Shown: piece by piece, positions 36,027 to 40,817 of the stretch | How the letters are laid out: every line of letters begins with the position of its first letter | Position numbering within the stretch: the first letter of the stretch is position 1 | Source of the DNA: Paramecium tetraurelia | Lineage: Eukaryota | Assembly (NCBI GenBank): GCA_000165425.1 | Contig: CT868038.1 | Span: forward strand, 1-64,000 | Direction of reading: 5' to 3' | Length of the DNA stretch: 64,000 bases | Position numbers and translations under genes: made by a program | The notes under the pieces: generated by a model | What the model saw: only the letters and a program-made list of their open reading frames with translations | What the model was told of the DNA's origin: nothing | The model's database searches: none

Positions 36027-36886
36027 TCATATATTTATTTTTTATAGTCTTTTTTTCAATTTTAATGAATTCCATTGATTGTCAGTCTAAGATTTTTATT
36101 CTTTATATTGAGTGGAGTACTCCTTTGAATCCATTCGGACGTACTTACCCTCAACTTAAGAAGGGTATTCTAGACTGTAGTTTGAAAATCCCTTGTTCAG
36201 AATGTAGAGGTCGGGGTAATGTAGCCTGGGATAGTCGTTCAGGTTGCGATCGGTGTTTCGTATTTGTTTATAACTAAAGGAAAATTAAGGGAGCAATTAC
36301 ATTTAGACACTTCTCTTTTCGGAGAATTCACAGTATAGCACAATTACTGGTTTTACGGTAGGAATTTATTTAAAAAATATAGACTCTATCTCGAAGGGGT
36401 TGCAAAGATGAGTTGCACCTTGGATGTGACCACCCTCAAACTCAAATTTGTAACGACAATCAAACAATGTAATATCATTAGCATTTTTATACTAAATTAT
36501 TAATTACTCAATTTTACTAAAGTTTCTGGGTTTATATAATTAACAGCATCCTTTTCAAAGTGCTATATTCTATTGGATCCCTCTTGCTCTTCGCAGAAAT
36601 TAACTGGAACTCTGAATGAACTGAAAAATTCTTATCTTTCAAATTATCTTTCAGGACTGCTGGTTTCACTCGAAATCGACACTCCTCTTCTCAACCAGGA
36701 ATCGTCTCCTATGACAATTCTTTTGTTTGGATTTGAAAATTGCTGGCTTCTTGTCGGACTCGACAATAACAACTCATCTCCAAATCTCTTCGTAGAATGA
36801 CTCGAATCGCAGTCAAAAGAGCTTAATGACGCACAAGTCTTGAATAGAGGCAAGAAATTAGGCATATCTGACGATGAACAATACAT
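36027..36886 (-). CDS. CDC25: Cdc25-like (rhodanese-fold) phosphatase
   Basis: YINPETL, LFDCRYKFEFEGGHIQGA, catalytic VLYCEFSEKRS (Cx5R), DRNLNDYPRLHYPDLYILNKGF, YVRM. Ser-rich N-terminus. Confidence 0.88.
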
Positions 36887-36935
36887 TTTAACTTTCCGCT
36901 ATTTTAGTTTTAAATATAAATATATATATATAAAA

Positions 36936-38033
36936 TCAAATCAAAAATGCTTTACGGCATAATGGACACTTCACCTAAATGTATTACCTTTGGCCCATTG
37001 AACTGCAGCACTGAGTACATATCAGATGTCCGCATAACTACCCAATCACAACAGAAGCTTCATTCATTTGTTAACTACAAACAGGGCATTCCGTATTGTA
37101 TTCTCTCCAGTTTGTTTTGCTATTTTATTGATAATTCCAAAATGCAGCTACATAATATACTCAAATCCTAACTTATATCGCAATACGTTCTTTCTTCCAC
37201 CTCCAATTCTCTATTACAACCATCCTCCCAAATAAAGTTGTCCCCACTCACTACTACAAACTTATACTCCAATTGATCGTCCTAAATTATCATACCCAAT
37301 TTCCAATTGTAATCGAGGTATCTTTTCATTAATCGACCTCGCTTTGGATTCCATTTACCTAATTACTCTGTATTACCCACAACAACCAAATAATCATTAC
37401 AGGAATTGGTCTTATAATTGATTGAAAAGTGGACGAATCTAGGAACTTTCCCAAGTGACTTCTCGTTCGTTTTCCTTTCCCATTCAGCCTTTAATTCCAC
37501 TGACTATGGCGCAGTTAAAATGTTATAATTTCTATTGTGAGTTCGTTCCCAAGTTATCTCATTGCTGAACATTTTAGTGATGGCAAATTTGTATTCAAAT
37601 GACTTAGACACAGATATCGTGAGATACCAAGTATTTCCATTTAAAATCATAATCTAAGCATCCTAAGGATTCCAATTCCCAAGTTCTTAGATACTCCCTA
37701 AAACACAAGGAACATAAGGCCAATTGATTTGTTTATTTAAAGCAAAGGTGACTTGCTTTTAGCCAAGTGTTACTTGCATCTTATCCAAACTGTCATCTAC
37801 ATTAACAAATAGAAAATACTAATAATTACATAAGAGTCCTTCTCGAAGCTAATTTTCCTCTCGAATCTAGTGTTATCATCCAAAGAGTATGTGACAATCT
37901 CATTATTTTGGATAATGAATTATGAAGTAAACTTGTTCTTGTTCACCCTATTTAATTGGAATGAATGGTCATTTGAACTTAAATTCACATCTTTGGGTGC
38001 ATTAGTGGTTTTGAGCTGATATTGAACAAGCAT
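36936..38033 (-). CDS. Tandem CBM20 (starch/glycogen-binding) plus C-terminal RING-HC protein
   Basis: CBM20 #1 VLGSIQELGNWNP...FEYKF...ITWERTHNR. CBM20 #2 VVGNTEQLGKWNP...LEYKFVV...IWEDGCNR. After a 25-nt intron (37148-37172): CPVC-x14-CGHLICTQC-x13-CPLCR. Confidence 0.88.
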
Positions 38034-38202
38034 TGACTTGCGAAATGAATATTAATTATATATATGAAATATAAATACTCATTATTTATTCAATTGCTAA
38101 TTGGGAAGAGTATGTTCTTAGCTATTAAATTCAATATTTAACATAATCGATTTATAGTTTTTGTTCAACACTACGTCAATCAATTAAGCTTAATTATAAT
38201 TA

Positions 38203-40817
38203 ATGAGTACAAGTAGATACATTTCGAAGAAGCTTCAGCCATTTCTCACTTCCAAATAAGAACTAACTCAGCTTCTTCAAAAACTAGAGAAGGAGCAAAA
38301 GGATGAGGAAACTTAGAGCGATTAATACTTTGATCAATTGGCAAGAGTTGAAAAAGTAAAAATGACAATCATTTATCATTTAAGGAGTATGAAACTCTTG
38401 TCCACATCTTAGAAGAGTATGGCAAGAAGATAGCTAATAATTAGAATGGAGAAACAGATTAAGCCTAAGATGCAGATTTTCGGATTGAAAAAGCTGTTAT
38501 TGAGACATTGAATTTATACTTGCTAGCCAATAGTAGAAAAGAATAACTGGAAGCACTTTAGGAAAGAGAAATAGCGAAAAGGCAATCTTCTCTGAATCTA
38601 ACTCTTGGCAAGCATGTCAACAATGAATAAAAAATAGTTGAAGATGATAACTAATTAAATGAAGATGAGTATGGTTATTATGTAACATTGAAATCTGAAG
38701 ACACTTCTATGGATGTTAAAATACCAGCAACCATTAAAACCTTTAAAGAGTTGAAGTAGATCATCAAATCTTGCTTTATGTTAGAAGAAAATGAGATATT
38801 TTGCACAGATCTTATGGGCAATCTGTTCCAAGATAATATGGTTTTGTTAGATGAAATATATCCTCCTCTTTTTGATTTAATGAAGAACTATCAACCTATT
38901 ATTGGAATCCAAGTGGTGAAATAAGTTAAACTCAAGGAAGTTATTTAGAGTGGGGATGAAAGTTTGTTATCTGATGATGGAGCAAGATTTTTCATTAAAA
39001 GATTCCAAACAATCAAACCTGTTTAAAAAAAAGTTAATTGGAATATATATTTCGGCTACTTAAACAATTTTAAATATTTTATTGAAACAATATTGTTTCT
39101 CATGGTACTTGGCTTATTTTTCGTGGTTTAAATTGATTCATTTAAATTTACTACTAGTTCCTCTGTGATCACATCATTTGGAAAACAGATTTAGATTTCT
39201 AAATCACTATTATCGCCGATCTAGAACATTTCCTAGCTTATTAATTAAACTCTCAACGATGACACTGATAATACTCTGTATCCAACTTATCCTTTAGTAT
39301 CTGGATTGTTGATATAAACACTAGTTAAAGAAGTAAAAATTAATATCATCTAGGAAAAATTACAAAATTGTTCTATCCTAAATCCTAATTAGAAATAGTT
39401 GTTCATTGATAACAATTAGAGTTGTTTAGACTTCTCTACTCTCCTGACAGATAATTTATCTGGAGAATATGAATTCAACATCTTTAATCCTACTATCTAC
39501 AATCAAGATTTTGGAGGGTATGTTTGGGAATTGAACTTAGCATCCAAAGAGGAATTCAATGAAAACATCTAATTGCTTTAATAGAAGCAATGGGTTTAAT
39601 ATAACGTCAAATCCTCAAAGTTCATCTTAAATTATTTTAACTCTCCTTCAAAAAGACTCATCTAAGTAGTTATTACAACTATTTACCTATTTAACGATGT
39701 ATGTACATATTGCTATCTAGATGTTATTAAATTATAACACAATTGCCTTAGAATCATTTAATCTTAACAAACCTTCTGAAACTGAGGATTTTTATGACGA
39801 AATTATATTTTATTTATCTATCCTACTCTTGTCTTTATCATTTTTAGGTGAGAGAATTAATCACATTTATTCTAGATTTCTTCGCCATTTACAAAAAGAC
39901 ATCTGAGAACCCTTTTATTTTTTTCTATCACTCATATTGTGAACTAAAAAACAAATAAAAAAAGTTATAATCCAAAAAAAAAGAATTGTAAAGTGTAGAA
40001 TTGCAAGAATTACAGTAGAAAGAACTCATCATGGGAGATTATTTTATTTTAAAAATATCCTCTGTGTATGTTGTGATTAAAATTCCCTTGATATTTGACT
40101 TTGTTTGTAATAATAACAAATAAAATAGACATTCTATCCAATATTACTTTATTAGTTAGGAAATCAATCTAGGATCTTTACACTAATGCGTTAGATGATA
40201 TTTAATTGAATTCAAATGTATATTAAGATACTGACAAACTATATGTTCCTGCATTTATTTTGAAAATATACACAGGAGTGTAGGTACTACTTTTAATGGG
40301 ATCAATAATACGGTTTTTAGGGAATTGGAGTCCTTACCTCAAATGTTACGGATTGGTGATGATAAGGGTAAACTATTTAGTAATATTCTAGTTCAACAAA
40401 TAATCTTCATTTTTATTGTTAGTCCTCATATTCATCATCAGTATAAGTGCAATGTCTTGGTCCATAACCATTCAAGGGAAGTTGATGTATTAAGAAAATT
40501 TTTTCTATGATTTTCTTGGCTTATTACGTTGCAGTTTAAAATATGGAATGCATAATGACCTGTCGGAGTTGGGACTGGAAAATAACTATTAGAAACAAAT
40601 AAGCTACTCTTTCGAAACTAGATATGTATTTAAGATCAATAAGATTAAGCTACAATACTTGATAATCTTAGTTATATCCTACATCATGGTTCCGATATTC
40701 ATCTCATTGATGACACAGCAGGTACACAACACTAAACAAGAAGCCGAACAAAAGATGTTAGAAATGCAAAAAGAAAAGCAAGAAGAGAAGTTATAAAAAA
40801 AATAAAGATAAAAATGA
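38203..40817 (+). CDS. Polycystin-2/PKD-channel-like membrane protein (divergent)
   Basis: GGYVWELNL...IQLLQQKQWVQYNVKSSKFILNYFNS resembles the polycystin TOP-domain signature and is followed by several TM helices. Coiled-coil termini. Several short introns. Confidence 0.55.

Follow-up and report, generated by a model that had tools for sequence, protein, structure and literature searches.

The gene GSPATT00034775001 of Paramecium tetraurelia is located on the minus strand (38033..36936) of a 64,000-nucleotide stretch of DNA (contig CT868038.1, positions 1 to 64,000; assembly GCA_000165425.1), which is hereafter called the window. This nuclear gene consists of three exons and two introns and encodes a protein in which two CBM20 modules are followed by a C3HC4 RING finger. 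The gene is real and expressed, and the public gene model misses the RING finger. Judging from its domain composition, the protein is probably a RING E3 ubiquitin ligase that is anchored on the storage glucan of the cell, namely glycogen. The combination of CBM20 and RING is rare and uncharacterised, and it has precedents in the databases.

Gene structure and reading frame

An earlier inspection of the DNA, here called the original prediction, had proposed a CBM20-CBM20-RING fusion at positions 36936-38033. This interval was found to be the exact coding span of the minus-strand gene, the stop codon counted. The G+C content of the window is 25-34%, and long frames appear only if TAA and TAG are read as glutamine. 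On the minus strand, the reading frames comprise 71 codons beginning with the ATG at 38033, a CBM20-like frame (37875..37063) and a RING frame (37160..36936). Exon 1 (37820..38033), which is open under genetic code table 6, starts with the ATG at 38033..38031, codes for about 71 amino acids and is identical to the start of the public protein model. Intron 1 (37797..37819) is 23 nucleotides (nt) long, reads GTATTTTCTATTTGTTAATGTAG from 37819 to 37797 on the minus strand (GTA...TAG) and is absent from both transcript contigs described below. Its removal is required because it joins the first exon with its ATG at 38033 to the CBM20 frame. A first intron of 33 nt (37797-37829) was also considered and rejected because the frame was wrong and both transcript contigs drop 23 nt. 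Exon 2 (37173..37796) encodes both CBM20 modules and is 100% identical to the public model. Intron 2 (37148..37172) has a length of 25 nt and the sequence GTTAGGATTTGAGTATATTATGTAG from 37172 to 37148 on the minus strand (GTTAG...TAG); it begins with GTTAG, whereas intron 1 begins with GTA. Removal of intron 2 brings the RING finger into frame. Exon 3 (36939..37147) encodes a short linker, the RING finger and a tail of 5 residues, and is followed by the TGA at 36936..36938, the sole stop codon under table 6. The residues at the exon junctions are ...VII-N-DSLD... for intron 1 and ...CDI-T-AFWNYQQ... for intron 2.

Computational joining of the exons under table 6 gave a spliced coding sequence of 1050 nt, corresponding to 349 codons and 349 amino acids, with no internal TGA. 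The sequence contains 13 reassigned codons in frame, seven TAA and six TAG, which fits the earlier remark that standard-code open reading frames miss the gene. The original prediction contained only the second intron; this part of the model was retained, and intron 1 had to be added. No hydrophobic N-terminal signal was seen when the protein sequence was inspected by eye.

The public model (P0001; CAK65296.1, XP_001432693.1, GSPATT00034775001) has 316 amino acids and is named 'CBM20 domain-containing protein'. It was the sole P. tetraurelia protein in the protein search. The model matches the spliced reading through residue 279 and then diverges, ending with 37 non-conserved residues that are encoded by the intron-2-retained frame (37060-37172) and terminated by the TGA at 37062..37060. 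Thus, the public model lacks the RING finger because it reads through intron 2 to a stop codon, and XP_001432693.1 needs to be corrected from 316 to 349 amino acids with a RING finger.

Transcripts and splicing of the two introns

Four sequencing runs were aligned to positions 36700-38300, namely the contigs X11 and X3 and the raw 58-nt oligo-dT RNA reads X21 and X22. The contig X11 (1108 nt) spans 36942..38051 and lacks exactly the 23 nt of intron 1 (at 37797) and the 25 nt of intron 2 (at 37148). The contig X3 (1111 nt, depth 24.8) spans 36942..38060, and here intron 1 is gone and intron 2 is kept. Both contigs can be regarded as transcripts because they are gene-sized and intron 1 is absent, and it is from the missing intron or introns that their source runs are presumed to be RNA. 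The X21 and X22 reads cover every exon, and their first mate lies almost entirely on the plus strand, which fits a minus-strand RNA in the usual stranded library. The read depth at intron 1 (37797) is 0 in both X21 and X22. At intron 2 (37148) it is 0 in X21 and 2 in X22, as compared to 12.7 and 7.8 (X21) and 13.4 and 6.0 (X22) in the adjoining bins. Since there are no junction-spanning reads among the 58-nt reads of X21 and X22, the evidence for splicing in the raw reads is this dip in depth. Taken together, the data show that intron 1 is always spliced out, whereas a minority of molecules keep intron 2. The predicted 25-nt intron at 37148-37172, which joins the RING finger in frame, is thus borne out by the X11 junction, the depth dip in X21 and X22 and the junctions of the orthologues, whereas X3 retains it.

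Given the partial retention of intron 2, a weak intron with a GTTAG start, the gene might mainly, or in a regulated manner, yield a RING-less tandem-CBM20 glucan binder of 316 amino acids. This protein would serve as a scaffold or compete with the ligase form, and the RING form would be minor. We consider this unlikely. The X3 contig, which keeps the 25 nt and lacks intron 1, would encode such a protein, two X22 reads are unspliced and the public model P0001 describes the same form. However, X11 is fully spliced, the depth at intron 2 drops to 0 and 2 reads from about 6-13 alongside, the RING exon is as conserved as the CBM20 modules, and the models of three orthologues are spliced at this junction. 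Moreover, frame-shifting retained introns usually lead to nonsense-mediated decay of the transcript in Paramecium.

The CBM20 modules and the N-terminal region

Scanning the table-6 translation of exon 2 with Pfam, as the original prediction had suggested, identified two stretches of the CBM_20 family (PF00686) with an E-value of 3.7e-29 and 100.8 bits, which is above the gathering score of 23.3, in agreement with the two CBM20 domains that had been proposed. Module 1 (37501..37755; residues 14-98 of the exon-2 translation) is the best Pfam stretch and module 2 (37198..37437) comprises residues 120-199. A comparison of the two modules with hhalign gave a probability of 99.7%. Among the solved structures, module 1 is related to the CBM20 domain of cyclodextrin glucanotransferase (7.7e-8) and to the starch-binding domain of the Aspergillus glucoamylase (1ac0; 5.8e-6), with which the LGxW, FEYKF and WE..NR columns match, and module 2 is related to the CBM20 domain of human STBD1 (8x8k; 3.5e-5). 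The alignments to 1ac0 and 8x8k revealed that both modules retain the Trp of LGxW, the Lys of EYKF and the WE..NR motif. We take these residues (two Trp, Lys, Glu and Asn) to form the glucan-binding site 1 of CBM20 domains.

An AlphaFold model was built for the orthologue P0002 from Paramecium primaurelia using an alignment with 19 rows. In this model, both modules are confident beta-sandwiches with a predicted local distance difference test (pLDDT) of 86-97 per block. Searching with the model using Foldseek led to STBD1 (8x8k_C) with a template modelling (TM) score, TM(target), of 0.81 and a root-mean-square deviation of 1.8, followed by the maltotetraose-forming amylase CBM20 (7czj; 0.74), glucoamylase (1kul; 0.73) and GPCPD1 (2z0b; 0.68). 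The top single-domain matches are glucan-bound CBM20 domains, and laforin (4rkk) was also among the matches. Thus, the model and the Foldseek matches agree that the modules adopt the beta-sandwich fold of solved CBM20 domains. A search in the ESM Atlas returned only generic CBM20 clusters with a score of 0.82, which is below the level at which a match is more than a lead. Membership in the CBM20 family suggests that the modules bind glucan.

The modules could instead recognise another ligand, such as a polysaccharide on intracellular bacteria, on endosymbionts or on remnants in food vacuoles, and the protein would then be an E3 ligase of the defence type. This idea is prompted by RNF213, which combines a CBM20 domain with an E3 ligase and whose authors speculate that the CBM20 domain is a pathogen receptor domain (PMC11549300). 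However, in the account given there, the role of RNF213's own CBM20 domain is not demonstrated (PMC11549300). Furthermore, both Paramecium modules keep the columns that are aligned with the starch- and glycogen-binding residues of glucoamylase and STBD1, and the top fold matches are binders of alpha-glucan. Therefore, a ligand other than glycogen appears improbable.

The two modules are preceded by an N-terminal region of about 80 amino acids, in which 49-64 of 80 residues are identical across the three orthologues described below (62-64 of 80 for P. primaurelia and P. pentaurelia). The N-terminal region is coding because it is conserved among the orthologues. It had been suspected to contain a third, degenerate CBM20 module, and this suggestion had to be rejected. 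Pfam found no family in the 71 amino acids of exon 1, the pLDDT of the N-terminus of the P0002 model is only 32-57, BLASTP gave no alignment to exon 2 at E<=100 and the hhalign comparisons to the two modules reached probabilities of only 0.7% and 0.3%.

The RING finger

The translation of exon 3 was recognised by four RING families of Pfam with scores above their cut-offs, i.e., zf-RING_UBOX (32.6 bits; cut-off 25.2), zf-RING_2 (29.7; 27.3), zf-ANAPC11 (29.3; 25) and zf-C3HC4 (22.7; 21), of which the latter covers residues 20-63. The complete C3HC4 RING finger of the original prediction was thus recovered. It extends from 36957 to 37088 on the minus strand if counted from the first to the last zinc-binding Cys (CPVC...CGHLICTQC...CPLC). 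All eight zinc ligands are present with the spacing C-x2-C...C-x-H-x2-C-x2-C...C-x2-C, and the pattern also occurs in the orthologues P0002 and P0003. By sequence, the closest solved RING fingers are those of RNF4 (3.8e-6), TRIM32 (1.4e-5) and TRIM21 (2.9e-4), and all columns of zinc ligands align. The motif CPLCRK stands opposite to CPTCRK of RNF4 in the alignment, with an Arg directly after the last Cys. This Arg is presumably the 'linchpin' that contacts the E2~ubiquitin conjugate. From domain membership, we infer that the RING finger recruits an E2 enzyme and confers ligase activity. An alternative is that the RING finger binds zinc without being catalytic and serves dimerisation or protein docking, so that the protein would be a glycogen adaptor without ligase activity. 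This would fit the moderate confidence of the model in the RING part, but it is doubtful because the eight zinc ligands and the Arg align to the active RING fingers of RNF4, TRIM32 and TRIM21 and the Pfam scores exceed their cut-offs.

Orthologues and rarity of the domain combination

Models of orthologues exist for P. primaurelia (P0002, 349 amino acids), P. pentaurelia (P0155, 349 amino acids) and P. sonneborni (P0003, 351 amino acids). All three carry the same intron-2 junction (CDIT/AFWNYQQ) and the RING finger. The spliced P. tetraurelia protein shares 83%, 83% and 75% overall identity with P0002, P0155 and P0003, respectively. For the RING finger and the tail, the identities are 45/52, 46/52 and 42/52, which is comparable to the identity of the CBM20 modules, and for the 17 residues preceding the RING finger they are 15/17, 15/17 and 16/17. 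Thus, the last exon is conserved like the rest of the protein. It follows that orthologue models with both domains are already present in public databases, as uncharacterised proteins from three Paramecium species.

A HMMER search with P0002 against 1.84 billion cluster representatives identified 276 proteins at E<=0.001. Pfam was used to scan the 149 best relatives besides P0002 (the best 150 of 276), of which 66 were scanned at E<=0.001 and 83 at E<=1e-5; in the latter batch a weak RING finger (E>1e-5) would escape the scan. CBM_20 and RING were found together in 2 of these best 150 relatives, which are P0002 and the dinoflagellate protein P0143. The latter is derived from the Gymnodinium smaydae transcript EP00928_P016247, which contains a complete open reading frame for an uncharacterised protein of 227 amino acids. 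A regular-expression check of 154 proteins detected a canonical RING only in P0002, P0003, P0061, P0132, P0134 and P0149, and missed the variant RING of P0143. Word-based searches with the RING part (residues 280-349 of P0002) returned two candidates, P0002 and P0003, and those with P0143 only P0143 itself. The other partners of CBM20 among the best 150 of 276 relatives are laforin-like phosphatases, protein kinases, PP2C, amylases and 4-alpha-glucanotransferases, and one further partner is a ubiquitin-specific protease (P0076). In P0033, P0057, P0067, P0049 and P0148, CBM20 is joined to a protein kinase or a PP2C phosphatase domain, and it seems from such cases that tethering to glucan through CBM20 applies to many signalling enzymes. 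A predicted protein of 1507 amino acids (P0013) combines Argonaute/Piwi domains with an alpha-amylase and three CBM20 stretches, and it probably represents two adjoining genes that have been merged by the gene caller.

The short fragments P0009, P0011, P0018, P0030 and P0061, which show 44-95% identity, suggest that more distant copies occur in environmental ciliates. P0061, a RING finger of 60 amino acids with a Paramecium-like tail end, was followed up as a possible fragment of a distant orthologue. The metagenome scan led only to the loci L001 and L002, and these were discarded as unrelated RING fingers because comparison of their six-frame translations with CBM20 profiles revealed no CBM20. 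In the literature, no description of a protist CBM20-RING protein or of this gene identifier was found, subscription-only papers being outside the search. The novelty of the architecture is qualified by the public models of the Paramecium orthologues, by the dinoflagellate protein P0143 and by RNF213, an E3 ligase with CBM20 that has been described.

Proposed function

We propose that the two CBM20 modules would dock on the alpha-1,4-glucan chains of glycogen and that the RING finger would recruit a ubiquitin-charged E2 enzyme. Ubiquitin could then be passed to proteins on the same particle, i.e., to glycogen-metabolising enzymes, to a laforin-like phosphatase or to the ligase itself. As a result, either the turnover of the targets would be controlled or the particle would be marked for lysosomal or autophagic disposal; both the substrates and the physiological outcome are our assumptions from this arrangement. 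A direct ubiquitination of the glucan is unlikely and would be possible only with a suitable E2 enzyme. According to a preprint, Paramecium and Tetrahymena accumulate glycogen and have lost the glucan-water dikinases (bioRxiv 10.64898/2026.09.25.754361).

Several observations weigh against a glycogen-anchored E3 ligase. A CBM20 domain does not guarantee glucan binding, as point mutants of the RNF213 CBM20 domain were without effect on the function for which RNF213 is known (PMC11549300). The RING finger of the AlphaFold model of P0002 reaches only a moderate pLDDT of 58-83 per block, and the domain arrangement is undefined because the predicted TM score is 0.37. Intron 2 is kept in one transcript contig of the two (X3) and in two X22 reads, and the raw reads lack the splice junctions. 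Finally, no full-length relative with E<=1e-30 was found beyond the query's own cluster among the 1.84 billion representatives, and the full-length family has been seen only in four species of the Paramecium aurelia group. On balance, a RING ligase on glycogen remains the favoured interpretation with a fair degree of confidence, and the RING-less product, the ligand other than glycogen and the non-catalytic RING are each weaker than this reading.

A more specific version, which we put forward as a tentative idea, is that the protein is a single-chain counterpart of laforin-malin, which would coat glycogen with ubiquitin, either on the bound proteins or on the glucan with a suitable E2 enzyme, for lysosomal or autophagic breakdown. 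It may then be one case of a wider wiring of ubiquitin enzymes to storage glucan via CBM20 in alveolates, for which P0143 and P0076 could be further examples. If the protein is indeed a glycogen-anchored E3 ligase, Paramecium, which is amenable to feeding-based RNA interference and microinjection, would be a simple one-gene system for studying the role of ubiquitin at glycogen. This role is topical in view of reports of ubiquitinated glycogen and of ubiquitin-dependent lysosomal clearance (PMC13345935).

Genomic surroundings

Downstream of the gene, on the same strand, a gene for a protein with a Rhodanese-like domain (E 4.8e-10) is located at 36030-36886 (minus strand). Its ATG at 36886 lies about 50 nt past the stop codon. 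This gene is also expressed, in the same direction, and has its own read coverage, the depth falling to a minimum at 36916-36969. On inspection by eye, the region of its motif seems to resemble Cdc25-type phosphatases. The intergenic spacer at 36899-36941 is rich in A+T dinucleotides and was skipped as a repeat in the read alignment, and both transcript contigs break there. Upstream, an A+T-rich spacer of about 170 nt is followed by a divergent open reading frame region on the plus strand (38206-39779) with a long table-6 frame of 475 amino acids, in which Pfam detected no family. Nothing in the surroundings bears on the function of the CBM20-RING gene.

Comparison with known systems

A similar architecture outside Paramecium is that of the dinoflagellate protein P0143. 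It is also derived from an alveolate and contains a CBM_20 domain (residues 48-131, E 1.4e-18) that is followed by zf-RING_2 (residues 154-199; 30.5 bits, cut-off 27.3). P0143 differs in that it has a single CBM20 domain, no N-terminal region, another variant of the RING finger and a C-terminal extension. It may be an independent fusion because the E-value of the whole protein to P0002 is only 5.1e-5, with 29% identity. Another ubiquitin-system enzyme with CBM20 from an alveolate is P0076 (Vitrella brassicaformis CEM38811.1, 898 amino acids), in which a UCH/USP domain (382-695) is combined with a C-terminal CBM_20 domain (803-886). In contrast to the Paramecium protein, the uncharacterised P0076 is a deubiquitinase and not a ligase. 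STBD1 of animals is a non-enzymatic CBM20 protein of glycogen, to which module 2 can be aligned and which gave the TM(target) of 0.81 mentioned above. STBD1 is anchored in the membrane by its N-terminus, carries a motif for binding proteins of the Atg8 family and lacks a RING finger. Thus, it is a receptor rather than a ligase.

Among the E3 ligases, HOIL-1L (RBCK1) is of interest because its tethering to glycogen via a CBM20 domain led to ubiquitinated glycogen and to co-localisation with lysosomes in human cells (PMC13345935). This engineered CBM20-tethered E3 ligase resembles the natural fusion in Paramecium. However, the CBM20 tether of HOIL-1L is artificial, and HOIL-1L is an RBR-type ligase that is able to modify sugars. 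Since a plain RING finger relies on the chemistry of its E2 enzyme, a direct ubiquitination of glucan would be much less likely for the Paramecium protein than for HOIL-1L. RNF213 (mysterin) of vertebrates is a described E3 ligase with CBM20 and RING (PMC11549300). Its CBM20 domain was found in the human protein by cryo-electron microscopy and fold comparison, and its role is presented there as unproven (PMC11549300). The giant RNF213 protein is built around a dynein-like AAA+ core and acts as a ligase on bacteria through an RZ finger, and its CBM20 domain has been tied to pathogen coats and not to glycogen (PMC11549300). In the Paramecium protein of 349 amino acids, by contrast, the only families are CBM_20 and RING.

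The laforin-malin system of animals (EPM2A and NHLRC1) offers a parallel in terms of the proposed function. Malin is related to TRIM32 (PMC3160408), and in mice it reaches glycogen in a laforin-dependent manner (PMC9844227). Both P. tetraurelia and Tetrahymena are reported to have laforin orthologues (PMC2064834), whereas malin is described as confined to vertebrates and one cephalochordate (PMC3160408), in line with what the original prediction had stated about the two proteins. Going by these two reports, there is a gap in the protists with a laforin, for which no malin is reported (PMC2064834, PMC3160408). The Paramecium protein cannot be counted as malin or as laforin, since NHL repeats and a phosphatase domain are both absent. 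Malin consists of a RING finger and six NHL repeats, and Pfam identified no NHL family in any exon translation of the Paramecium gene, whose product ends 5 residues past the RING-flanking Arg. Laforin combines CBM20 with a dual-specificity phosphatase domain, for which there was no DSPc match, and the same Pfam scan did recognise proteins with CBM20 and DSPc elsewhere (P0020, P0068 and P0105). The likeness is thus an analogy of logic, with no homology beyond the generic domains: in both cases a CBM20 domain would bring a RING E3 ligase to glycogen, but the Paramecium protein carries the CBM20 modules and the RING finger on one chain. If it acts as a glycogen-anchored E3 ligase, it would be a natural "Rosetta-stone" fusion, supporting the view that laforin and malin work together in order to bring a RING ligase onto glycogen.

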